From the IMG/VR virus record IMGVR_UViG_3300002124_000001, positions 291-64,290 of that record: a DNA stretch of 64,000 bases. One strand, 5' to 3'. The notes beneath the pieces are model-generated. The model was given only the letters and a program-made list of their open reading frames with translations, was not told the DNA's origin and did not search any database. The stretch comes from a virus. Its lineage: Duplodnaviria; Caudoviricetes. Shown one piece after another: positions 176 through 64,000 of the stretch; the first letter of the stretch is position 1, and each line of letters begins with the position of its first letter. A program made the position numbers and the translations under genes.

Positions 176-322
176 TCACCAGACTCCACGCTCTGACGGC
201 ATCGGCTGTTCGTCCTCACGCTCGTGACGACTCAACCGCGACCCGCCGTAGATCGCCAGCGCACCGAGCACGGCCGCGAACCCGACGATGATGAGTCCCG
301 CCGTCACGATGATCCAGAACAT
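176..322 (-). CDS. small single-TM protein (48 aa)
   Basis: Read manually as MFWIIVTAGLIIVGFAAVLGALAIYGG...; start overlaps the upstream stop; below the ORF-track cutoff. Confidence 0.45.
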   Translation of the reverse strand: MFWIIVTAGLIIVGFAAVLGALAIYGGSRLSRHEREDEQPMPSERGVW

Positions 323-648
323 CACCGGCCTCCTGCGAACATGTCCGCGCCTTCAAGTTGCAACGCTGGGCCACGTCGACTGCGAGGCACCAACGCCAGC
401 GCCTGCGCGGGCTCGCAAGCCTCGAGCGGCGCTTGCCGGCGCTTCGCGATGAGCGCCTCGAGATCGGCATCGGTAAAGCGCCACTCCGCCCGTGTCCGAA
501 TCCCCTTGCTCCGTGGATCCCGCTCGCCGCGCGAACTCACATCGACCGCCGCGAGCTGCTTCGCCTTGATCAACTTGTCCACCGTGGAGCGCGACACCCC
601 GAGGACGGCCATGGCGTAGTCGATCGTGCGGAGCGGCTGAAGACTCAC
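322..648 (-). CDS. excisionase/MerR-like HTH DNA-binding protein
   Basis: LRTIDYAMAVLGVSRSTVDKLIKAKQLAAV...WRF fits the HTH_17/Xis-like pattern. Confidence 0.7.
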   Translation of the reverse strand: MSLQPLRTIDYAMAVLGVSRSTVDKLIKAKQLAAVDVSSRGERDPRSKGIRTRAEWRFTDADLEALIAKRRQAPLEACEPAQALALVPRSRRGPALQLEGADMFAGGR

Positions 649-782
649 TTGCGCCTCCAGCGAGAAAGCGAAAGACGCGCCTGAGCGATCAGCACCACGA
701 CGCCGAGGACGACGAACGATGCGAGCGCCACGATCGCGGCTGCTTGCGCGAGGGCGATCCCGTAGTCGCGCATCAGCCTCAC
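645..782 (-). CDS. small TM protein (45 aa)
   Basis: Hydrophobic stretch AAAIVALASFVVLGVVVLIA; GTGA overlaps at both ends. Confidence 0.45.
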   Translation of the reverse strand: MRLMRDYGIALAQAAAIVALASFVVLGVVVLIAQARLSLSRWRRK

Positions 783-1207
783 TCGCTCACCGCCATCAGG
801 TCACCGACCGCGTCGAGCAGCCGACGGATCGCGGCACGGCCGAAGCCGAACCGCGCGTTCATCGTTCGATGGAGAGCGATATGAAAACCGATCGGCAACC
901 GCAACATCTGCGCGAACGACGGTTGCTCTCGGTATTCCGGTGAGCGCCACTTCGACACCAGCGGCGCACCGACGCCGAGCAGGATGCCGACTTCCTTCGA
1001 GGAGATTCCCGCGAGCGTCAGCGCGCCGTCGAACAACTGCGCGCTGAGAATGTCCGCCTGATCCGCCGTGACGTCGCCGTCCGACGAAACAAAGTTTCGC
1101 AACTCGGCGGTCTGCGAAACCTTATTTCGCACGTCGGCAGTCTGCGAAACATTCGGTAGCAGACTCGGCGGGAGGTTCAACTGACGATCAGTGGACGATG
1201 ACTTCAC
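779..1207 (-). CDS. CII-like phage regulatory HTH protein
   Basis: HTH-like ISSKEVGILLGVGAPLVSKW; lies directly after the Cro-like gene. Confidence 0.5.
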   Translation of the reverse strand: MKSSSTDRQLNLPPSLLPNVSQTADVRNKVSQTAELRNFVSSDGDVTADQADILSAQLFDGALTLAGISSKEVGILLGVGAPLVSKWRSPEYREQPSFAQMLRLPIGFHIALHRTMNARFGFGRAAIRRLLDAVGDLMAVSE

Positions 1208-1425
1208 GGTGCCACCGCCCCATCGGCCTGCGGAACGAGATCGGCCACGGTGACATCAAGCGCGCGGGCGATCTTGCGCTTCATGTCGTCGTCAGGTTCA
1301 AAGTACGCCGTCTCCCACGTCGAGAACGTGGCCTGAGAGACGCCAACCTCCTGCGCCAACGTCATCTGCGAGATCCGACGCTCGGCCCTCAGCACCCGAA
1401 GGCGGTTCGTCTTCCAAGCACTCAT
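1204..1425 (-). CDS. XRE-family HTH regulator (Cro-like)
   Basis: LRVLRAERRISQMTLAQEVGVSQATFSTWE is a canonical XRE HTH; 73 aa, no peptidase domain. Confidence 0.9.
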   Translation of the reverse strand: MSAWKTNRLRVLRAERRISQMTLAQEVGVSQATFSTWETAYFEPDDDMKRKIARALDVTVADLVPQADGAVAP

Positions 1426-1462
1426 GTGTGATGAGTATCCACATTACATGAGTGCTTGTCAA
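1415..1462 (-). promoter_or_regulatory. sigma70 promoter of the Cro-like gene with a 12-bp inverted-repeat operator
   Basis: TTGACA (1462-1457), 17 bp, GATACT (1439-1434); CAAGCACTCATG (1415-1426) and CATGAGTGCTTG (1447-1458) are perfect inverted repeats 20 bp apart. Confidence 0.8.
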
Positions 1463-1631: not shown

Positions 1632-1660
1632 TTGACATGGAACCTATCGCTTGGTATTAT
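1632..1660 (+). promoter_or_regulatory. strong sigma70 promoter of the rightward operon
   Basis: TTGACA-17 bp-TATTAT; inverted repeat GTGGGAA...TTCCCAC just upstream. Confidence 0.85.
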
Positions 1661-1686: not shown

Positions 1687-1968
1687 ATGACCATGACAAT
1701 GACCACGGAGCAAATCGACATTGACATCGTCCATACGGGCTCCGACGAGCACGTACTGACGGCCTACGACCGCGACGGACACCCCATCTGCTCACTCTTG
1801 GCACCGGACCAAGACGTCGTCGGCGACATCGTGGAGGGGATCGATGGTGAGCGCACGGCCACGCTCGCGACCGTGACGATTCCGCTGTCTCGGCGCCATC
1901 GCACTGGGCGCCTTCACGCCGCGCTCTATCATGCCGCGGCAGCGGAATGGCCGATCGATGGCAAGTAA
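1687..1968 (+). CDS. hypothetical protein
   Basis: First ORF after the promoter; RBS GGGAGAG. Confidence 0.7.
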   Translation: MTMTMTTEQIDIDIVHTGSDEHVLTAYDRDGHPICSLLAPDQDVVGDIVEGIDGERTATLATVTIPLSRRHRTGRLHAALYHAAAAEWPIDGK

Positions 1969-2029
1969 GCACCGCGAGCAGAAAGCCGTGGACAACACGT
2001 ACGGCACCGGCAAGCTAGGGAGAGACGAA

Positions 2030-2251
2030 ATGACCATGACACAGACCGCCGCCTACCGCCCCTCAGACTTGGCCACCGCGACAGTCGACGCCCTCCGCGT
2101 CGAGGCTGGCAGTGCTGGCGACGGCGCGACCGTCCGCGACTGCGACGCGGTGCTCTACTGGCTCTCCAGTGGCGCCGCCGCAATGGGTGTCCGATGCCGC
2201 GCCGCCGTCAGGATCGCGCGCATCCTCACAGACGCGGCGGCCCATGAGTAA
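2030..2251 (+). CDS. hypothetical protein
   Basis: Shares the RBS/start block TAGGGAGAGACGAAATGACCATGACA with the previous gene. Confidence 0.65.
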   Translation: MTMTQTAAYRPSDLATATVDALRVEAGSAGDGATVRDCDAVLYWLSSGAAAMGVRCRAAVRIARILTDAAAHE

Positions 2252-2525
2252 GCACCCTGCCGCCGTCACCCTCGGGCGCCGCACAAGCGCCAAGAAAGCC
2301 ATCAGCAGCGCCCAGAACGGCCGCACGGGCGGTCGCCCACGCCTATACCGGCTCGCAATGGGCGATGAGGATGACGTCCTCCAACGCCGCCAAGGCGACC
2401 TGTGGCTGACGCTCCTCCCGCCCTATGAACGCGCGGCGAAAGCAGCCCTAGATCGTCTACGGACATCGCCCGCCAAAGTCGCCGCCGGCCGCAAGGGCGG
2501 CAGGCCCAAAGGGAGGCAGTCATGA
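2244..2525 (+). CDS. basic protein with two AK...GR.GGRP (AT-hook/KGG-like) motifs
   Basis: SAKKAISSAQNGRTGGRP and SPAKVAAGRKGGRP. Confidence 0.6.
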   Translation: MSKHPAAVTLGRRTSAKKAISSAQNGRTGGRPRLYRLAMGDEDDVLQRRQGDLWLTLLPPYERAAKAALDRLRTSPAKVAAGRKGGRPKGRQS

Positions 2526-2737
2526 ATACGTGCTACTGCGACCGGTGTTCGGAGCCCGACCCCATTTGCGAACACGGCGTCTCTACTCACGACGAGGACT
2601 GTCCTACGTGTGCGGCGGTGGCGGACGAGCTATGCGACGAGGAACTCGATCGGCTCCGTGCGGAACTGCGGGTGGTCGACACCCGCCGCAGGGCACTACG
2701 TGACCGGATCGAACATCTCACTGGGGTGCGACCATGA
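2522..2737 (+). CDS. Cys-rich hypothetical protein with C-terminal coiled coil
   Basis: CYCDRC...C..H...CPTC; ATGA overlaps. Confidence 0.6.
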   Translation: MNTCYCDRCSEPDPICEHGVSTHDEDCPTCAAVADELCDEELDRLRAELRVVDTRRRALRDRIEHLTGVRP

Positions 2738-3546
2738 GCCATATGAGCGAACGAGAGATTATGGTGGCAAACGGCGAGGCTTGTCCTTGTTGCCTGAGCG
2801 TGTACCCGGCGCCGACGGCGCATGCGGAAACCGTGACGTGTGGCACTTGCGAATTTGTCAACCAGTTTTCACCCCCAGCGTCCTCCGACGCGGATAACGT
2901 CACCGACAACCCGAAGTCGTGGATTGCGTGGAAGCGTCACGCCGAACGCTTGGTGGAAGAGAGGCGCCAGATCGGCATAGCGATGTTCGGGATGTGCGAT
3001 TGGCTACGCGCGCACGGGCATCAGCCGTTTCCAGGCGAGATACAGCGCTTGATCGCAGCGATTGTGATCGACACGAGCCCGTTATCTGGTGCCGAGATGG
3101 CCCGCTCGTATCAGTTGCTCGCAGAGGGCAAGTTGTCCGACGTGGCTTTGTCGCCAGCGGCCGGCGAGGCTCAGGACGCGAATGCGGTCCCAACGCTGCC
3201 CGACGCGGAAACCGCAGTGGCGGACGAGACGAGATGGCAGCCTATTGATATGACCGGCAAGACGTGCCATCGCGGCCACGAGTCGTATGTGGTCGGGTGT
3301 CGCTGGTGCGTGGCGCTCTGGAAGGCGGCGATTGAGGCGCAAACGGAGAGCCGTGACACTACCCGCCTCGCCGCTCTCTCCGAGTTCAACGGGGAGTTGA
3401 TCGCGCTGGTACGCGCTGCTGTGGCGGTTTTGGTGGAGCACGCGCCGCCTGACGGCTTGACCGACCATGACGCCATGAGTCGGATGTACGGCATTTTCGA
3501 TGGCCCTGAGTATCGCGCCCTCCTCGCCAAAGCGGAGACGCTATGA
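2734..3546 (+). CDS. mosaic hypothetical protein
   Basis: 270 aa, CPCC...CGTC and C..H..C..C motifs; ends RALLAKAETL. Confidence 0.6.
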   Translation: MSHMSEREIMVANGEACPCCLSVYPAPTAHAETVTCGTCEFVNQFSPPASSDADNVTDNPKSWIAWKRHAERLVEERRQIGIAMFGMCDWLRAHGHQPFPGEIQRLIAAIVIDTSPLSGAEMARSYQLLAEGKLSDVALSPAAGEAQDANAVPTLPDAETAVADETRWQPIDMTGKTCHRGHESYVVGCRWCVALWKAAIEAQTESRDTTRLAALSEFNGELIALVRAAVAVLVEHAPPDGLTDHDAMSRMYGIFDGPEYRALLAKAETL

Positions 3547-3785
3547 CCGACAACGAGACGGTGCGCGCGTTGGAGGACGATCCCGATGCGATGTACGACG
3601 AGATGCAACGGCGCGGGCGTGAACGTGACCTCGCGCACCGTCGCGTGCTCGAGCTGGAAACGATCAATGCCGAGTTGATCGCGGCGTTGAAGATGGCACT
3701 GGAGCCGTTCGACAACGACTCCACCGAACGCGAGCGCCGTCGACATATCGTGCGTGCCCTCCTCGCTAAAGCGGAGACCTTGTGA
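3543..3785 (+). CDS. hypothetical coiled-coil protein
   Basis: Also ends RALLAKAETL; ATGA/GTGA overlaps. Confidence 0.6.
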   Translation: MTDNETVRALEDDPDAMYDEMQRRGRERDLAHRRVLELETINAELIAALKMALEPFDNDSTERERRRHIVRALLAKAETL

Positions 3786-3994
3786 CTGAGCCCGGAACCC
3801 TCCAACGGCTCAAGCCGATCATCGACGACATGCAAGCCGCCAGCGATGCTATCGACGAATCGAGCGGCGGCTACGACTACAAGCCGCGGAATGGATGGTG
3901 GCGTGAGATGACTGGACCGAACAAGCCGTGCCGCACGCATCCGACACCGGTTCCGTGGTGTCAGTTCTGTCGTGACGCGGCGAAGAAGCGCTGA
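3782..3994 (+). CDS. hypothetical protein
   Basis: Coupled start; C..H...C..C motif. Confidence 0.5.
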   Translation: MTEPGTLQRLKPIIDDMQAASDAIDESSGGYDYKPRNGWWREMTGPNKPCRTHPTPVPWCQFCRDAAKKR

Positions 3995-4094
3995 GACATA
4001 AATTGTGCAGACCGCAACTCCAGTGAGCGTCAGTAAAGAACAGTGCGAGCCGTAAGCCGATGCGCACCCGCTCCGGCCCGTGACCCAGGAGTAA

Positions 4095-4397
4095 ATGATG
4101 GATACGACCACGCAGATTGCTTGGGTGATTGGTGGCCCGATTGGCCTCATCATGATCGGCTTGGTGATCAGTGAGTTGAGGCGTGGGCCGTCCACTTATG
4201 GCACCACCCAATGCTCGACCTGTGCGGACACGGGGCAATACTGTCTCGCCTGTCAGCAGGTCGCGATCCAAGCCTGCTACGACACGCACGTCGATCAGTT
4301 GCATCATTACGGGTGTCCCGACTGTGCGGCGTGGCCGATCCACATCCCGGCAGTCCGCGAGAGCCAGTGGGCACGCACCTTCCGCAGCCGTAAGTAG
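4095..4397 (+). CDS. membrane-anchored Cys-rich protein
   Basis: N-terminal TM segment, several CxxC motifs, RBS AGGGAG. Confidence 0.6.
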   Translation: MMDTTTQIAWVIGGPIGLIMIGLVISELRRGPSTYGTTQCSTCADTGQYCLACQQVAIQACYDTHVDQLHHYGCPDCAAWPIHIPAVRESQWARTFRSRK

Positions 4398-4408
4398 ATG
4401 ACTCGACG

Positions 4409-4479
4409 ACACTGACCGACTCGCACGGCCGCGCCCCGAAGTATTTCGGTTTCCCAGCACGACCGTACGAATCAATCAG
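4409..4479 (-). ncRNA. G.U-rich hairpin element, copy 1
   Basis: On the minus strand a 23-bp stem with 6 G.U pairs encloses UGGGAAA-CCGAA(AUAC)UUCGG-G; repeated at 5450-5521. Confidence 0.6.
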
Positions 4480-4510
4480 GCTTCACGACCAGGGAGTAGA
4501 ATCAGCACCA

Positions 4511-4801
4511 ATGAACGACGACGCGATCCTGCCAGACGACATCACCGTGAAGCACCTGACTGTGCCCAGCACCGACGCCGAATGGCTGCGCCAACAGAGC
4601 GTGGCGTATGCGAAACGGTTCTCGGTGAGACACGAGGCCGTCGACGCGACGCTGGGAGGAATCCTCGGCGACGAGCCAGACACACAGCGACGGATGGTGC
4701 GCGGCATCGCTCACTACTTCATCGACGACCTCGAAGTATCCCAGGACCAGTTTGAACGAGAGTGGGCTGCTCAGCCGGCGGCCGAGGCGGCGCAACCGTG
4801 A
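4511..4801 (+). CDS. acidic hypothetical protein
   Basis: 96 aa ORF between the two hairpin copies. Confidence 0.6.
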   Translation: MNDDAILPDDITVKHLTVPSTDAEWLRQQSVAYAKRFSVRHEAVDATLGGILGDEPDTQRRMVRGIAHYFIDDLEVSQDQFEREWAAQPAAEAAQP

Positions 4802-5103
4802 GCCGCGTTCCGTGCAAGCGATGCGGACTGATGATTGATCCGAAGGCGTACGGCAATGCCGGGGAGCGATGCCGGAACGTAGCCGCATGTGACCGCCGCG
4901 CCGACGCGCGGAAGCGACTACCCAAGATCGCAAGCGTCGAGCATGACGTTGACGGCTGGTGGGTGGTTCTTAACCCAGGCTGGATTATCCCGAACGACAA
5001 CACGCACGCGGCCGTCGAGGACCGGAAGGCTGATGCGCTCGCGACGGCGCGCCGCGCTGTTCCGTGCGACTGCGACGAGTGCCAAAGGTTGCTCGTCTCA
5101 TGA
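4798..5103 (+). CDS. Cys-rich hypothetical protein
   Basis: CKRC...C....C and CDCDEC; GTGA/ATGA overlaps. Confidence 0.6.
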   Translation: MSRVPCKRCGLMIDPKAYGNAGERCRNVAACDRRADARKRLPKIASVEHDVDGWWVVLNPGWIIPNDNTHAAVEDRKADALATARRAVPCDCDECQRLLVS

Positions 5104-5438
5104 GCGATTCATCAAAGGAAGCCGTGGCCCTCCGCGCGGCGGCTGTGGAATGGACGGATGGCGCACGCGGCCCAGTGCTGGACGCGCATGACAGTGCGGG
5201 CCTGCGCCGTGACAACAAGCTGAAGCGTGCCGCGGTACGCTTCAGCATGACAAAAAAGCGCGGCTACTCAGACGAGTTCCCGACGACCCGCGAGAAGCGG
5301 GTCTACTTCATGCTCGACAAGATCCCCCCAGCGCTGTGGATTCGCGTGAAGGCCAAGGCGAAGCGGGAAGGCGTCTCGCTGCGGACGTTGATTCTCGGTT
5401 GGTGCAAAGAGTGGGTCGAGCCGCCCACTAGCGCCTAA
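5100..5438 (+). CDS. Arc/RHH-like DNA-binding protein (possible internal start at 5247)
   Basis: MTKKRGYS...IPPALWIRVKAKAKREGVSLRTLILGW; paralogue at 44147-44326. Confidence 0.7.
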   Translation: MSDSSKEAVALRAAAVEWTDGARGPVLDAHDSAGLRRDNKLKRAAVRFSMTKKRGYSDEFPTTREKRVYFMLDKIPPALWIRVKAKAKREGVSLRTLILGWCKEWVEPPTSA

Positions 5439-5449
5439 ATCGTTCTTCT

Positions 5450-5521
5450 ACACTGACCGACTCGCACGGCCGCGCCCCGCAGAAATGCGGTTTCCCAGCA
5501 CGGACCGTACGAATCAATCAG
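5450..5521 (-). ncRNA. G.U-rich hairpin element, copy 2
   Basis: Same long stem with a 1-nt bulge; inner hairpin CCGCA/UGCGG replaces CCGAA/UUCGG (compensatory change). Confidence 0.6.
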
Positions 5522-5544
5522 ACTTGCCGTGCTACACTCCACTC

Positions 5545-5672
5545 GTCAGGCTGCGAATTGCGCGGAGGCCTTCGCGCACGTCGTTCGTCTAATAGCTAGG
5601 ACGCGGTTATAGCCGGAGGGCGCCCCCGGCGATCCCGATATGGCGGTGCAATTCCACCACGGCCAGCCTGAC
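5545..5672 (+). ncRNA. tRNA-like small RNA inside a GUCAGGCUG/CAGCCUGAC terminal stem (RNA 1)
   Basis: Extended -10 TG-C-TACACT at 5530-5538; D-arm GUCU/GGAC; T-arm GGCGG-UGCAAUU-CCACC; 5-bp acceptor GUCGU/ACGGC; hairpin where the anticodon loop should be. Confidence 0.6.
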
Positions 5673-5677
5673 AACTT

Positions 5678-5785
5678 TTACCACGCGCTATAGGCTCCTG
5701 ACAGCGCCCAGTAGATCGCCATCCCCAGCGCCAACGCGAGCACACAGTAGGCGATGACGCGATCCACCTGTGTCGGCGTGCTCAC
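5678..5785 (-). CDS. 35-aa TM peptide
   Basis: MSTPTQVDRVIAYCVLALALGMAIYWALSGAYSAW; read manually. Confidence 0.45.
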   Translation of the reverse strand: MSTPTQVDRVIAYCVLALALGMAIYWALSGAYSAW

Positions 5786-5955
5786 TGATGGGGGCACCAG
5801 TACGCATCGACCTCGTGATACCGCCAGCCGTCGTCACTGTGCGAGGTCTGCCGGAACACCTTCCGCTGCCAGATGATGATCGGCGGTGGCACCACGTCAC
5901 CCAACTCGAGCGTGGCCACGATGAACGTCTCGCCTCGGTGCAGCTTGACCGTCAT
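5782..5955 (-). CDS. 57-aa hypothetical protein
   Basis: MTVKLHRGETFIVATLELGDVVPPPIIIWQRKVF...; GTGA overlap with the TM peptide. Confidence 0.45.
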   Translation of the reverse strand: MTVKLHRGETFIVATLELGDVVPPPIIIWQRKVFRQTSHSDDGWRYHEVDAYWCPHQ

Positions 5956-5972: not shown

Positions 5973-6113
5973 GTCAGGCTGCGGCGTGGATGGACACGCG
6001 CCTCGGTGCAACCCCGGATGCTGGGCGTGGCCAAGAACCCGCCCGGAAGTGGCGCAGTGACTGCTCGGTCTTGGCCATGCAGTCGAGCCGGAATCAAGCC
6101 CGGCCAGCCTGAC
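5973..6113 (+). ncRNA. multi-hairpin small RNA with the same terminal stem (RNA 2)
   Basis: Extended -10 TG-C-TAGACT at 5957-5965; same 5' CUCGUCAGGCUGCG and 3' CGGCCAGCCUGACAACUU as RNA 1; 12-bp internal helix 6025-6036/6069-6080. Confidence 0.55.
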
Positions 6114-6158: not shown

Positions 6159-6350
6159 TTAGCCCGCCTTCGCCTCGGCCGCCCGTTTCGCCTGCTGCTT
6201 CTCGACCACGCTCCACACGACGCCGATCACCGTCATCAGCCCACCAATCGCGGCCTGTAGGTCAGAGTCCGAGAGCGTGCCGTTGGTCACGAGCACCCCA
6301 CCGACGGTGGTCAGGATGTGCCGCACGATGCCAAGTACCATGGATCCCAT
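6159..6350 (-). CDS. small holin-like membrane protein, second copy
   Basis: Near-identical protein to the C-terminal part of 8039-8314; two TM segments and a basic tail. Confidence 0.7.
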   Translation of the reverse strand: MGSMVLGIVRHILTTVGGVLVTNGTLSDSDLQAAIGGLMTVIGVVWSVVEKQQAKRAAEAKAG

Positions 6351-6486
6351 CGTTGTCTGCACCTTTCTGTGAATCGCCTTGGCCGGCAGGACGACACGCT
6401 CCTCTACGCAACCAAGGTGATCGCGCTTTCCCAGCGAAGCGTTCCCACCCGCACCGGCCAACTCGTCCGTGCTAGGATTCGCTCAG

Positions 6487-6828
6487 ATGCCCATAGTTCT
6501 TGAAGAACAGCAGATTCAGCGCGCGACATCCTTGATGTTGTCGGACTGGCTGACGCATCACGCTGACTGTGAATCATTCTTTGAACGCACGTGCTCGTGT
6601 GGACTTCAGAACACACTCGCCGTATTGCTGGGCGACGAACCGTATACGATGATGGCCGTCAGAGGTGCCCACGTCGACATCCCGATCTATCGGGAGTTTT
6701 CTGCGAGGGTCCAAGATGCTGTTTCTCCAGTCAAACTCGAAGTCGTCGGCGTCCGTTACCTTGAGATAGGCCGCCCTCGTGTCGTTCGCTTCCAGGGGCG
6801 CCTCATCGTCTTGAGTCGAACCCAGTGA
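6487..6828 (+). CDS. hypothetical protein
   Basis: Preceded by extended -10 TG-C-TAGGAT (6470-6478). Confidence 0.55.
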   Translation: MPIVLEEQQIQRATSLMLSDWLTHHADCESFFERTCSCGLQNTLAVLLGDEPYTMMAVRGAHVDIPIYREFSARVQDAVSPVKLEVVGVRYLEIGRPRVVRFQGRLIVLSRTQ

Positions 6829-7145
6829 ACTACGATCATCTTCGAGTCCTCGATCAGTTGTCGCACAGCGAGTGGCGCTCACCGCAAGAGATCGCGCTTC
6901 GCCTGAGTCCAGGCGCGGCTACGTCATTCTGGTACGGCACTCTCGCCCATGTGCACGCCGCGCTGCGCTCGCTTGAGGAAGGCGAATACGCCGAGCGTCG
7001 TCAACGCGACATCTCTCCGGAGCGTCTCGCGAACCGTGGCGGACGTCCTGAAAGCGAATACCGACTCACCGAACCAGGGGTGCGCCGTCGCGTCGAAAAC
7101 GACCAGCGCGCGAGCCTTCCGAACGCCGTTCCTTCAGAGGCGTAG
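6825..7145 (+). CDS. winged-helix (PadR-like) protein
   Basis: VHAALRSLEEGEYAERR...GGRPESEYRLTEPG resembles a PadR wing. Confidence 0.6.
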   Translation: MNYDHLRVLDQLSHSEWRSPQEIALRLSPGAATSFWYGTLAHVHAALRSLEEGEYAERRQRDISPERLANRGGRPESEYRLTEPGVRRRVENDQRASLPNAVPSEA

Positions 7146-7148
7146 CCC

Positions 7149-7427
7149 ATGAACCGCCGTCAGTTTCTTACCACCGTCGCTGCTGCACCGCTGCTGAAAC
7201 TGTTGCCAGTGCCGACGGTGTCGCCTGTTACGCAAGACCTCGATGCAGCGTTTCGGCTCATGAGCACTCCATCCCCGATGCCCATCAGCCTGCCCTTGGC
7301 ACGCCCGGACATGGGTCTCTGGCGAACTCATCACAGCCGAGATAATGAACGCCTTCCACCGCGAGCACGTGATCGACATCAGTCTCGATTCGTCGCCACG
7401 CCGTTGACATCCACTTCCGGCCCCTGA
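7149..7427 (+). CDS. twin-arginine signal-like small protein
   Basis: MNRRQFLTTVAAAPLL. Confidence 0.45.
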   Translation: MNRRQFLTTVAAAPLLKLLPVPTVSPVTQDLDAAFRLMSTPSPMPISLPLARPDMGLWRTHHSRDNERLPPRARDRHQSRFVATPLTSTSGP

Positions 7428-8035
7428 AACCTCGTTCCCCCGCACGGATCGACGCCTGCGCGCTCGATCATCGTGGCGTGGACTTCTCGCTCGGTGCTGC
7501 GCCCCTGCATGTGTGATTCGGCCTGACCAGGATCGATCTCCATCGGCGCGAATTCCTCCGCGATCGACGCGAGGTAGTCTCTCCGGTGGGCAATCACATC
7601 CGGGTCGGTCGGCGGGTCCACTGGCGGCTCTGTCGGCGGCGGCAGCACCAACGCAGGCGGCGCAGGGGCCTCGCCATTGACGCCGAGTAGCCAAATGTAG
7701 TCGTGCAGGAACAGCCCAACCAGGCGCATCCCGTCGTCGTCTGGCGACCGCTGCGGCCCTTTGATGTGGACGGTCATCTCGCCGTAGTTCAGATCGTCGC
7801 GCGCTCGCGTGCGTTCGTCGCGCTTGAACTGCACCAGCACGTGCTCGTCCGAGGAACCATCGGCCCTGATGTGCGAGCCGCTGAACTTCCCCAGCGAGCG
7901 CGAGCGCGACTCCAGCCGCAAGCCGGGCGGGTCATCCACATCGCTGCGGATCCCGACCTCGTTATTCGTGATGACGATCTCACCCCATGGGCGCTTGATG
8001 CGGATGACCTCAGCAGCGTCGTCGATGACGGCCAT
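7379..8035 (-). CDS. hypothetical protein at the end of the lysis cassette
   Basis: 218 aa; starts 3 nt after the holin stop; Pro-rich linker. Confidence 0.65.
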   Translation of the reverse strand: MAVIDDAAEVIRIKRPWGEIVITNNEVGIRSDVDDPPGLRLESRSRSLGKFSGSHIRADGSSDEHVLVQFKRDERTRARDDLNYGEMTVHIKGPQRSPDDDGMRLVGLFLHDYIWLLGVNGEAPAPPALVLPPPTEPPVDPPTDPDVIAHRRDYLASIAEEFAPMEIDPGQAESHMQGRSTEREVHATMIERAGVDPCGGTRFQGPEVDVNGVATNRD

Positions 8036-8038
8036 GGC

Positions 8039-8314
8039 CTACGCCCCCGCCTTCGCCTCGGCCGCCCGCTTGGCCTGCTGCTTCTCCACGACGGACCACA
8101 CGACGCCGATGACGGTCATCAGCCCGCCAATCGCGGCTTGTAGGTCAGAGTCCGCAATCGTGCCGTTGGTCACGAGCACCCCGCCGATCGTGGTCAGGAT
8201 GTGTCGCACCACGCCTAACACCATGGATCCCATCGCCTTCTCCATTCCCTTGTGAATCGCCTTCGCCGGCAGGACGACCGGCGCGGCGACAATGCGTCCG
8301 AGCTTCTTCCACAT
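8039..8314 (-). CDS. holin-like membrane protein
   Basis: Two TM segments; directly follows the endolysin. Confidence 0.7.
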   Translation of the reverse strand: MWKKLGRIVAAPVVLPAKAIHKGMEKAMGSMVLGVVRHILTTIGGVLVTNGTIADSDLQAAIGGLMTVIGVVWSVVEKQQAKRAAEAKAGA

Positions 8315-8752
8315 TTAATGATCCGGCGGTTCCGCGCCGGTCCTCAACGCCTGACACAACCACGGCCCACGCCTCCCGACTTGCGTGAACCACTTCGAGT
8401 CTTCGAGATGCGCCGCCGCCGACTGACAATCATTCCGCGCCATCGCCGCGATCGTGCTGGTGAACTTCAGCAGCCTCGTAATGCCCAGGTTGAAGCAGAG
8501 ATCGACCCACACGCGCTGCCGCATGGGATCGAGCACCCCAAACCACGGAAAGGATTTCGCGCACTCCGCGAGACAGATTTCGATGTCGTGCTCAAGCAGC
8601 GTGTAGGCTTCGCCTTCCGTGATGCCGCGGTCCCTCAGGTTGCGTCCAACGCCGATCGTCGGAATACCCAGGGAGTCCTCGTAGACGGTGAGACGTAGCC
8701 CCTCGTGGCGGACGAGCTGATCGCGGAGTTTGGCGTAGTCCAAGGGGTTCAT
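8315..8752 (-). CDS. endolysin, T4-type/GH24-like lysozyme
   Basis: LVRHEGLRLTVYEDSLGIPTIGVGRNL (E-x8-D-x5-T triad); DSKWFTQVGRR. Confidence 0.92.
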   Translation of the reverse strand: MNPLDYAKLRDQLVRHEGLRLTVYEDSLGIPTIGVGRNLRDRGITEGEAYTLLEHDIEICLAECAKSFPWFGVLDPMRQRVWVDLCFNLGITRLLKFTSTIAAMARNDCQSAAAHLEDSKWFTQVGRRGPWLCQALRTGAEPPDH

Positions 8753-8997
8753 CAGCGCGGCCTCGTGGTGTCGTCAGCGCCCGTGCGATCCATCCGCCGA
8801 TGCAGCGCATCGATCACCGTGACGAGTTTGGTATTGGACGCGGTGTTGTCCTTGACCACCACGATCAAGACCTCCGATTGGCCTTTCCAGAGGTCGGTGT
8901 ACTGCTTCACGTCCTTCCGGTAAAAGAAGAACATGAAGGCCGCCAAGACTCCGCCGACCCCGAGCGTGGCGAACCACTTGAGGAATTCCGTATCCAC
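8752..8997 (-). CDS. BhlA-like holin candidate
   Basis: One N-terminal TM plus coiled coil; GTG start with RBS GAAGGGG. Confidence 0.6.
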   Translation of the reverse strand: MDTEFLKWFATLGVGGVLAAFMFFFYRKDVKQYTDLWKGQSEVLIVVVKDNTASNTKLVTVIDALHRRMDRTGADDTTRPR

Positions 8998-9170
8998 GAC
9001 GACCCCTTCGGTTCCCACAGGTGCGCATCCTTGCAGCAAATATTGCACGTGCGGTTGAAACGATGCGCCCGTTCAGGTTACTAGATCCCAGGCGGGCGCG
9101 TGGACTTATCCTCTGCGCGTCTTGCTAGGCTGGCGTGTTCTGCACCACAGGGCACGTCAGCCGCTCTGCC

Positions 9171-9500
9171 TTACTTCATGGTCCGGTCCACGATCTTTCG
9201 GATCTCGTCCATCGTGAACTGAATTTTGATTGTGGCGTTCGCTTGCTCCTGCGCCACCTTACGGAGTTCCCCGAGAATCTCCGTCTGATTTTGAAACAAT
9301 GGCAACACGAGCGTCTTCAACACCTCCGTGATCGACTCGCGCTGCTTGGCCTGCCAGTACTCCGGCGGCAGGTCGCCCGCCTTCTTCCCTTCCAGGCCGA
9401 GATCGCTCGTGCGCTTCTTCTCCAGGAAATCCAGAATCAACTTCAGGCAGCCCAACACGAACAGCCCGCCAGCGCCGACTTGGAGGATCCAATCACCCAT
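9171..9500 (-). CDS. TM plus coiled-coil protein (holin/antiholin-like)
   Basis: N-terminal TM segment; lies between tail and lysis genes. Confidence 0.5.
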   Translation of the reverse strand: MGDWILQVGAGGLFVLGCLKLILDFLEKKRTSDLGLEGKKAGDLPPEYWQAKQRESITEVLKTLVLPLFQNQTEILGELRKVAQEQANATIKIQFTMDEIRKIVDRTMK

Positions 9501-22058: not shown

Positions 22059-22242
22059 CTGTTCGCTCCTGGACAAGGCCCGAAAAAGGCAAATGCCCGG
22101 CACCGGTTCACCCCAACGCGCAGACGCGTCGCTGGGAAGGAACAGGCCCGGGCATTCGCTTGAAGCCGCGGAGACTGTGTCGTCACCCGGATGGACCGCT
22201 CATTTGAGCGGCAGGACCGGGCGACCAATCAATGAGATGAGA

Positions 22243-44146: not shown

Positions 44147-44326
44147 TCACTTGTCAACCCATTCTTTCCAGAGCGTCAACGTCAAGGCTCGAAGACTGAC
44201 ACCTTGCTGCTTCGCTTTCGCAGCTACACGTTCGTAGAGGGTTGGCGGGATGCGGTCCACCTCGAACCGCACCCGTCGTTCCGTCTGTGGGGTGAACTCG
44301 CGGGAATAGCCACGCTTTTTTGTCAT
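44147..44326 (-). CDS. Arc/RHH-like repressor
   Basis: RVRFEVDRIPPTLYERVAAKAKQQGVSLRALTL; paralogue of 5247-5438. Confidence 0.75.
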   Translation of the reverse strand: MTKKRGYSREFTPQTERRVRFEVDRIPPTLYERVAAKAKQQGVSLRALTLTLWKEWVDK

Positions 44327-44346
44327 GCGCGCGAGTGTACCGGTAT

Positions 44347-44652
44347 TCACGCGAACACCACTCCAGTCCGCCTTGGCTCGCCTGCGTGCTGCGCACCCGC
44401 CGGCCACCAGCCCTCAGGCACGAGAGGCTTCTTCCCGTTGTCGTAGGCTTTGTCAGCCGTCATCCAAATCTGGACAGTTGCATGTGTGTCTTGAGCATCG
44501 GCGAGCGCCAGCGCCCGAGCCAACCCGATCGGCCTCGGCGTAATGCGCGCCCATGTGTGCTGAGGGAACTCGAGTAGCCCTTGGCACGGGCCGTCGCGCG
44601 TGATGAGACGGCGGCCGTGGTGGTGGATGGCGACCTCGTACATCGCCATCAC
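44347..44652 (-). CDS. hypothetical protein (101 aa)
   Basis: GTGA overlap with the upstream gene. Confidence 0.6.
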   Translation of the reverse strand: MMAMYEVAIHHHGRRLITRDGPCQGLLEFPQHTWARITPRPIGLARALALADAQDTHATVQIWMTADKAYDNGKKPLVPEGWWPAGAQHAGEPRRTGVVFA

Positions 44653-63614: not shown

Positions 63615-64000
63615 TCAGGCCGTCGCCGCCGTCGCAATCGCAGCCTCGATCACCGACCAGGGGATTTGCTTCGCGTCAAATAGGGCGATGAACTGCTCCG
63701 CCCGAGGACGGAGCAACATCGGCACGTCCACCAAATCCCGCGCATCGAAGGCATGCGCCATCGGGCAGTTCGACCACGAGTGACATTCCCAGTGCGTCTC
63801 GAAACTCTCCAGGGACTTTCCGGCGGCCGTCAGCAGCGCTGGGACAGTGACCGCGAAGTACTCCTCCAGCGTCTCGCCAGTGGGCAGGCGGACGTTCTTC
63901 GCCGATCTGAGGTCCGCCGATCTGAGGTCCGCCGATCTGAGGTCCGCCGATCTGAGGTCCGCCGATCTGAGGTCCGCCGATCTGAGGTCCGCCGATCTGA
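63615..64000 (-). CDS. pentapeptide-repeat protein (partial; N-terminus outside the window)
   Basis: Perfect 15-bp tandem GCCGATCTGAGGTCC, about 6.7 copies from 63901, encoding (ADLRS)n; then CHSWSNCPMAHAF domain. Confidence 0.85.
   Translation of the reverse strand, partial: RSADLRSADLRSADLRSADLRSADLRSADLRSAKNVRLPTGETLEEYFAVTVPALLTAAGKSLESFETHWECHSWSNCPMAHAFDARDLVDVPMLLRPRAEQFIALFDAKQIPWSVIEAAIATAATA

Follow-up and report, generated by a model that had tools for sequence, protein, structure and literature searches.

We found that a sequence of 71 to 72 nt, present twice in the window (i.e. the whole 64,000-nt stretch of phage DNA analyzed here), is a genuine and strongly strand-specific structured repeat without a known family. 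The two copies are spaced by 1041 bp, and each starts 11 nt past the stop codon of a plus-strand gene, namely TAG at 4395-4397 for copy 1 and TAA at 5436-5438 for copy 2; an earlier note had described them in this arrangement, and both the repeat listing and the sequence bear it out. Read as minus-strand RNA, copies 1 and 2 fold at -47.5 and -47.3 kcal/mol, respectively (z of -6.9 and -7.0), and none of 200 shuffled sequences was as stable. The corresponding values for plus-strand RNA are only -22.8 and -28.2 kcal/mol (z of -1.8 and -3.3), a difference that confirms the previously claimed specificity of the structure for the strand antisense to the plus-strand operon. When the whole window was scanned with a sliding window of 80 nt, the two sites turned out to be the most strand-asymmetric places in the genome, with asymmetries of -24.9 and about -19 kcal/mol vs. 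a genome mean of -1.7 (sd 5.6), while they ranked 4th and 7th in stability.

Each copy contains 29 pairs, all of them standard, which make up a lower stem of 24 pairs and an upper stem of 5 bp with a 4-nt apical loop. In both copies the two stems are separated by a six-base bulge, GGGAAA, located on the 5' side only. The full pairing reported in the earlier note therefore stands, but its count of 23 bp with six U.G pairs has to be raised to 24 and seven. Similarly, the UGGGAAA that it described as a fixed internal loop is indeed a fixed element, but the U pairs with a G, so that what is left is the one-sided 6-nt bulge. The seven pairs that are not of the Watson-Crick type are all U.G in minus-strand RNA, with the U always in the 5' arm, and all become C.A mismatches on the plus strand. 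As seven wobble pairs are cheap in RNA and costly in DNA, the element suits RNA better; folded as DNA, it reaches -20 to -23 kcal/mol (z of about -4.7).

The copies differ from each other by one compensatory pair, two bases of the apical loop and one extra bulged C, which sits in the 5' arm of copy 2. The compensatory change replaces A-U by C-G in the upper stem. Covariation of this inner stem had been claimed before and is real, but it was overstated, as it comes down to a single base pair between two copies. That the differences spare the structure, another of the previous claims, holds throughout: despite the substitutions all pairs remain standard in both copies, and a simulation gave a probability of about 0.02 that four random substitutions would keep them so. 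Since the differences are confined to structure-neutral places, we counted them in favor of an RNA hairpin. The GGGAAA bulge and its adjoining pairs are identical between the copies. Outside the repeat the resemblance ends, as nothing is common to the right flanks, i.e. the sequences that precede the hairpin on the minus strand, and the flanks are unrelated and free of any target duplication.

The virus record, of which the window comprises bases 291-64290, is 64,290 bp long, has direct terminal repeats and is rated complete. It stems from a soil metagenome assembly, and the same phage was found at low depth in a second soil run. Its recognizable genes are those of a tailed phage, i.e. a large terminase, a portal protein, an S49 protease, an HK97-type capsid protein and a tape-measure protein, together with lysozyme, two Pam3-type holins, RtcB, two DNA methylases, a FEN-type exonuclease and several HNH and T5orf172 genes. 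DNA similarity to GenBank phages was not detected, and the portal protein is at most about 35% identical to those of known GenBank phages.

The layout of the genome was derived from third-position GC content and ORF maps (Table 1). Nearly all genes, including those for structural proteins and lysis, are on the minus strand, and the only sizeable plus-strand operon converges on them. The plus-strand promoter to the left of this operon would drive it across both hairpin sites. None of the operon products had a match in Pfam or PHROG searches. Copy 2 is placed at the convergent junction because the minus-strand block ends at 5678 and the plus-strand operon at 5438, and in the minus-strand direction it follows the last ORF of that strand at a distance of about 160 nt. 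Between the two is another structured repeat element, which has the same ends as a second such element at 5973-6113, and which minus-strand read-through RNA would have to cross ahead of copy 2.

Table 1. Features around the two hairpin copies, with positions in the window.
Feature	Position	Strand	Remarks
Minus-strand genes	176-1425	-	Include an XRE-like HTH protein (read from sequence) and an HTH_17 protein
Near-consensus sigma-70 promoter	about 1434-1462	-	Divergent from that of the plus-strand operon; consensus scan
Near-consensus sigma-70 promoter	1632-1660	+	TTGACA-17-TATTAT with TG; consensus scan
Plus-strand operon	1687-5438	+	Only sizeable one; converges on the minus-strand block
ORFan directly upstream of copy 1	4095-4397	+	100 aa, one hydrophobic segment, Cys-rich
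Hairpin copy 1	4409-4479	-	71 nt; within the plus-strand operon, flanked by genes 4095-4397 and 4511-4801
Cassette gene 1	4511-4801	+	96 aa, acidic, ORFan
Cassette gene 2	4798-5103	+	101 aa, Cys-rich, ORFan; start overlaps the gene 1 stop (GTGA)
Cassette gene 3	5100-5438	+	112 aa; C-terminal part from 5247 has homologues
Hairpin copy 2	5450-5521	-	72 nt; convergent junction, past the last plus-strand gene
Structured repeat element	5545-5673		Between copy 2 and the last minus-strand ORF
Last ORF of the minus-strand block	5678-5797	-	39 aa or shorter, one hydrophobic helix
57-aa ORF	5782-5955	-	Between the holin paralogue and the last minus-strand ORF
Holin paralogue	6159-6461	-	Ahead of the 57-aa ORF
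Small plus-strand island	6469-7145	+	Interrupts the 3' end of the minus-strand block
218-aa protein gene	7379-8035	-	Near the 3' end of the minus-strand block
Long minus-strand block	from the right end (about 64000) down to 5678	-	
3' end of the minus-strand block		-	In sequence: lysozyme, holin, 218-aa protein, plus-strand island, holin paralogue, 57-aa ORF, 39-aa hydrophobic ORF

As a tentative reading, to which we give somewhat less than an even chance, the element would be a polar RNA hairpin at which late read-through RNA is stopped or processed while early transcription can proceed, and which was probably duplicated when the cassette arrived. A polymerase that continues past the last minus-strand gene, which ends at 5678, would enter the converging early operon in antisense, and the resulting RNA would form the 29-bp hairpin of roughly -47 kcal/mol. 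This hairpin could then mark the 3' end of the late RNA, either by making the polymerase stop or pause without a U-tract, or by offering host RNase III a long double-stranded RNA (24 bp, bulge, 5 bp) whose cleavage would leave a protected 3' end; of the two, RNase III would be the more obvious candidate. By either route, the amount of RNA antisense to the early genes would be limited. On the plus strand the U.G pairs would turn into C.A and the hairpin would largely melt, so that the early operon could be read across copy 1, and probably copy 2, unblocked, making the element a one-way valve. The second copy would be a matter of history, i.e. the cassette (4480-5449) may have been gained by recombination within the hairpin, with the slightly diverged copy of a related phage as partner. 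Such an event would leave one hairpin on each side of the cassette, as is the case with the PeSL elements of T4-type phages.

The genome layout agrees with the late read-through RNA that the earlier note had listed among its candidates, as copy 2 lies just past a minus-strand block ending in lysis genes. No canonical terminator was identified on either strand at the junction (5440-5780) by the consensus scan, and a minus-strand block that ends facing a plus-strand operon without such a terminator was counted in favor of a barrier to late read-through. The hairpins themselves did not appear in the consensus terminator scan either. No run of U follows the minus-strand stem in either copy, and there is no U-tract on either strand, although the genome does use one elsewhere, where a canonical long hairpin is followed by five U (at about 22082-22159); this makes classical intrinsic termination at the repeat doubtful. 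With regard to processing, the paired length of the element is that of RNase III sites (around two helical turns or more, in which wobble pairs and bulges are tolerated), given 24 bp and 5 bp stacked across the one-sided bulge. The complete phage genome encodes neither an RNA polymerase nor a sigma factor, so it is the host polymerase that would meet the hairpin. An RNase III gene is also lacking from the complete genome, and host RNases would most likely meet the hairpin too.

Several known systems share traits with such a barrier. Retroregulation by lambda sib requires two alternative promoters and targets the mRNA of an upstream gene encoded by the same strand. By analogy, phage RNase III sites including sib may be compared to the present element as long, imperfect double-stranded hairpins beyond the end of a gene block, which would form only on transcripts reading through from one direction and have sufficient paired length for RNase III, but there is no sequence similarity and no Rfam family in common. 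Intrinsic terminators at convergent phage gene pairs, e.g. T50 of phage LUZ7 (PMC10204088), likewise place a strong hairpin between converging transcription units. These are, however, canonical terminators with U- and A-tracts and often bidirectional, whereas the repeat has no U-tract and owes its single direction to wobble pairs. The barrier model leaves unexplained why all seven wobble U are in one and the same arm.

Between the hairpin copies are three translationally coupled genes, and this cassette is part of an operon rich in ORFans. The gene directly upstream of copy 1 found only itself among 1.84 billion representatives, and a 270-aa gene further upstream (2734-3546) also matched only itself. 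For the C-terminal part of cassette gene 3, on the other hand, 77 homologues were retrieved, many of them 90-100% identical at the amino acid level, from otherwise unrelated phage contigs. Some of these are labelled CopG/RHH or HicB-like in their source records, and a paralogue of the gene with 62% identity is found at 44147-44407. Neither the hairpin nor the other two cassette genes were present in any of 21 contexts of this gene, so the hairpin is not part of the unit that travels with gene 3. Two other direct repeats in the plus-strand operon, D15 (1670-1704 and 2013-2047) and D14 (3514-3550 and 3753-3789), each bracket one gene, which makes a repeat-mediated gain of cassettes plausible there; judged from the sequence, the acquisition of gene units in this manner seems to be a habit of the region. 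Copy 1 is situated 1 kb into the early operon, a position at which the need for a barrier is less evident and which thus speaks against the barrier model.

This cassette structure could also mean that the element is nothing but a recombination linker, i.e. a boundary of the PeSL or moron type through which ORFan cassettes are gained and lost by homologous recombination, that is at most a weak attenuator of the plus-strand operon, and whose strand asymmetry has no function. Such an explanation, which we hold to be unlikely, draws on the two direct copies flanking three genes in an ORFan-rich early operon just past stop codons, on the single-gene repeats D14 and D15, and on the -10-like hexamers that follow each copy at 11-17 nt (TAGAAT at 4497-4502, 8 nt upstream of the cassette gene 1 ATG, and TACACT with TG at 5530-5538). 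It also has a precedent in the PeSL (promoter-early stem-loop) repeats, which flank ORFans in T4-type phages and recombine (PMC2839356, PMC4122927). An attenuator of the plus-strand operon should, however, pair best on the plus strand, whereas every mismatch in the present element destabilizes the plus-strand fold and leaves that of the minus strand intact, and the copy differences keep the minus-strand fold. The contigs of the two soil DNA runs, the second of which matches 4207-4568 exactly, contain the cassette-bearing form only; a joint across the cassette, as expected of a cassette-less form, was not seen in them, which in contigs alone says little either way.

The likeness to PeSLs is nevertheless considerable. 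Both are intergenic stem-loop repeats of 50-100 bp that flank ORFans in a plastic early region, both are situated between a stop codon and the start signals of the next gene, and both provide homology for the gain and loss of cassettes. They differ in that the stem-loop of a PeSL is a terminator on the coding strand, while the stable fold of our element is on the opposite strand, and in that a PeSL is joined to a strong sigma-70 promoter, where here just a -10-like hexamer follows. The consensus scan detected no promoter at either copy, the hexamers being outside the repeat, at unequal distances from it and without a -35. In addition, there are only two copies in this genome, and no recombinant or mini-circle was seen.

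Another explanation that accepts an RNA structure assigns it a specific partner. The GGGAAA bulge may bind a phage or host protein, or the RNA may be a cis-antisense regulator of neighboring genes, e.g. of the gene at 4511, the ribosome-binding site of which is 13 nt from copy 1; it would then not be a general barrier. The identity of the bulge and its adjoining pairs in both copies points in this direction, as do the recurrence of the UGGGA junction in the L010 hairpin described below and a structure that is more elaborate than a terminator requires. We nonetheless consider such a partner improbable, as the conservation of the bulge comes from two copies only and no RNA-binding protein was recognized near the element with Pfam and PHROG. 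Moreover, the copies have unrelated right flanks and no minus-strand promoter in common. Given this lack of common sequence ahead of the minus-strand hairpin, a promoter-driven form of the antisense regulator suggested in the earlier note is unlikely.

A function in single-stranded DNA, i.e. as a cassette recombination site of the attC or IS200/IS605 type, or as a signal for priming or primosome assembly, was considered as well. Similar to the bottom strand of an integron attC site, the repeat is located past a cassette stop codon and folds on one strand only, the one that does not encode the cassette genes; it also brackets a cassette, and its DNA fold still has a z of about -4.7. However, the ends of the repeat on the plus strand (CTGACC... 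and ...AATCAG) do not conform to the inverse core sites RYYYAAC/GTTRRRY of attC, there are no R/L core sites and no integron integrase, and the G.T-rich pairing suits RNA over DNA, with seven G.T mismatches that halve the stability of the DNA fold and are nearly neutral in RNA. The complete genome lacks a tyrosine recombinase (PF00589), for which all control genomes gave a match, as well as a Y1 HUH transposase (PF01797) and a reverse transcriptase. The Y1 HUH TnpA of IS200/IS605 elements is accordingly not present between the hairpins, and the cassette genes match neither Pfam nor PHROG. Given that there is no enzyme, no attC core, no target duplication at the flanks and a weak DNA fold, a site of this kind, as put forward in the earlier note on account of recombination, is possible but unsupported, and we regard it as very unlikely.

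The search for further copies bears on whether the repeat could be a selfish miniature palindromic element of the REP, ERIC or Correia kind, inserted twice and with side effects on RNA at most. A 71-nt intergenic unit with 24-nt inverted arms and sharp borders would suit such an element, and the transcripts of Correia elements form hairpins cleavable by RNase III (PMC2649163). The analogy with Correia, ERIC and REP sequences would extend to co-transcribed hairpins of small intergenic inverted repeats that RNase III may bind or cut and that can alter the expression of neighbors. These are, however, high-copy chromosomal elements with target duplications. Here, only two copies were found, in the same orientation and 1 kb apart in a phage, and no target-site duplication accompanies them. 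R1, a covariance model derived from both copies, identified no third one in the genome, and neither arm occurs elsewhere in it with up to 3 mismatches, i.e. there are no half-copies. The best additional R1 match (952-1035, 18.7 bits) was dismissed as chance, as it is inside a gene and has neither bulge nor upper stem; chance matches of R1 in coding DNA reach 17-19 bits.

Outside the genome, a strict DNA pattern scan of viral contigs gave no match. The metagenome pattern scan yielded three loci (two distinct sequences), in which a 29-nt core alone is present, inside ORFs, and which we judged to be chance. The same scan of the genome collection yielded 11 loci, none of which has the fold (0/11). 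The few matches from these scans are GC-rich, short and located in ORFs, i.e. coincidental. Accordingly, the many dispersed copies and target-site duplications typical of miniature palindromic repeats were found neither in the phage genome nor, among what were chance matches only, in the viral, metagenome and genome collections scanned, and a selfish element has, in our estimate, a very small probability. The Rfam search, with 0 matches at gathering thresholds in the whole window, upheld the previous statement that the hairpin belongs to no named RNA family. The best match below threshold (E<5) was to a miRNA-precursor model, at 21.8 bits vs. a threshold of 83 and with an E of 0.22, and was judged meaningless. 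A neutral product of chance takes whatever probability these explanations leave over. Retron msd, DGR, CRISPR-repeat mimic, put/nut antitermination and CsrA-sponge were also considered and rejected, for want of partner genes, because of an unsuitable copy number or position, or for lack of sequence resemblance.

Taken as a whole, the element is best filed, as a variant, in the known class of intergenic hairpin repeats by which phages insulate and exchange gene cassettes. Should the polar RNA hairpin be real, the U.G/C.A difference between strands would give a compact genome a simple means of making hairpins one-directional, and a barrier to antisense read-through could sit inside an operon harmlessly. 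Beyond the T4-type phages, a regulatory stem-loop would then for a second time, and independently, serve as a homology patch for shuffling ORFan cassettes, and the element would be a ready-made monodirectional insulator part. A further possibility, which we think rather doubtful, is a dedicated polar insulator of transcription and RNA, in which the placement of all wobble pairs on one arm would present a strong structure to polymerase or RNases coming from the late side, and almost none to early transcription in the other direction. It would double as a portable linker for the exchange of early-operon cassettes between phages, possibly read by a factor that recognizes the GGGAAA bulge. At present the weight of all this is modest, coming from one uncultured phage and two copies.

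Relatives of the phage could not be found by scanning viral contigs with the 218-aa protein, the 270-aa protein or the portal protein singly, but were reached via the 218-aa protein and tail proteins. In these, the late operon meets a short converging operon beside an HTH region, and in the lineage of L006 and L044 the junction carries genes for tRNA-Asn and tRNA-Thr on the strand of the early operon. R1 detected no copy of the repeat in either of two complete relatives, of 46 and 44 kb, or in two other related contigs; the scan showed it to be absent from L006/L044, L046, L047, L048 and L049. The element is hence not conserved at the late-operon end of the group.

Lastly, a candidate was found in L010, a related phage contig with a tail protein 59% identical to that of our phage and a homologue of the 218-aa protein at 57% identity. 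Directly after the last late gene of L010, and ahead of a converging gene, there is a branched hairpin (6376-6461) that is specific to the late strand, folding at -58.5 vs. -46.3 kcal/mol. Its R1 score of 20.9 bits (E of about 1e-3) exceeds the noise ceiling of the model by just about 2 bits. Features in common with the element in the window are the bases that form the foot of the stem, a C bulged out of the 5' arm and the UGGGA junction on the 5' side; the inner stem also starts and ends alike, and the 3' trailer is similar. In the first nine pairs from the base, paired manually, there are two double and three wobble-compatible single changes, and none that breaks a pair. From these sequence features the L010 hairpin may be homologous to our element, a possibility that we put only slightly above even because of the bit scores that chance R1 matches reach. 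Being a late-strand hairpin after the last late gene, it was counted in favor of a barrier at the end of the late operon; if the homology is true, this end, on the late strand, would be the ancestral site of the element.

The last gene of the three-gene cassette between the two copies of the 71/72-nt minus-strand hairpin (5100-5438, core 5247-5438) encodes a small protein for which 77 homologues were found in phage contigs that are otherwise unrelated and come from many samples. Many of these are 90-100% identical to it, and some are called CopG/RHH or HicB-like in the sources. A paralogue with 62% identity is encoded in the same genome at 44147-44407, and each of the two genes terminates a short operon of ORFans. 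Such a pattern is the one expected if the protein is an Aca-like regulator that acts on an anti-defence locus.

Other repeated and structured features were also identified and are listed in the table. Each of the two direct repeats in the plus-strand operon encloses a single gene of that operon. One of them spans a ribosome-binding site together with the start MTMT, and the other a common C-terminal RALLAKAETL plus the overlapping start codon of the next gene.

Repeats and structured features of the window and of a related phage contig (L010)
Feature	Position	Strand	Location or property
Short direct repeat	1670-1704 / 2013-2047		plus-strand operon; 91% identical
Short direct repeat	3514-3550 / 3753-3789		plus-strand operon; 84% identical
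Structured element pair	5545-5673 and 5973-6113		
Two adjacent hairpins	9091-9162	plus	-45.9 vs -30.1 kcal/mol
Long hairpin	about 22082-22159	minus	-50.2 kcal/mol, z -5.1
Branched hairpin	L010:6376-6461	late-strand-specific	3' of last late gene

The branched hairpin of L010 resembles the 71/72-nt hairpin of the window in its stem base, bulged C, UGGGA junction and trailer, and is a possible distant homologue of it. Within the window, the two adjacent hairpins fold well on the plus strand only and occupy the gap separating the minus-strand genes 8752-9048 and 9171-9500. They are another structure, besides the 71/72-nt hairpin, that is specific for the strand opposite to the neighboring genes. 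The long hairpin, found at the start of the capsid gene or just upstream, is very stable and followed by five U, i.e. a canonical terminator or attenuator amid the structural genes.

The paired structured elements at the end of the late block have about 30 nt in common at either end, forming a 9-bp closing stem, and differ in their cores. On the plus strand both are preceded by the motif GTGCTAsACT, which on the minus strand reads as a GGAG ribosome-binding site and in one case precedes the ATG of an ORF (5782-5955). A plus-strand, tRNA-related origin is favored for these elements, because genes for tRNA-Asn and tRNA-Thr are found at the equivalent junction in a related phage (contigs L006/L044). 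The late block has a patchwork structure at this end (6159-8314). Here, the holin gene occurs in two copies (8039-8314 and 6159-6461, 86% identity over 233 nt), with a gene for a 218-aa protein and a plus-strand island (6469-7145) between them. Third-position GC is lower in this island, whose second gene appears to encode a winged-helix protein.

Lastly, the two complete relatives, G001 and G003, both with direct terminal repeats, measure 46 and 44 kb versus 64 kb for the phage studied here, so that its additional genes amount to roughly 18-20 kb. Close to its right genome end, at 63885-63989, a 15-nt unit is present in seven tandem copies.
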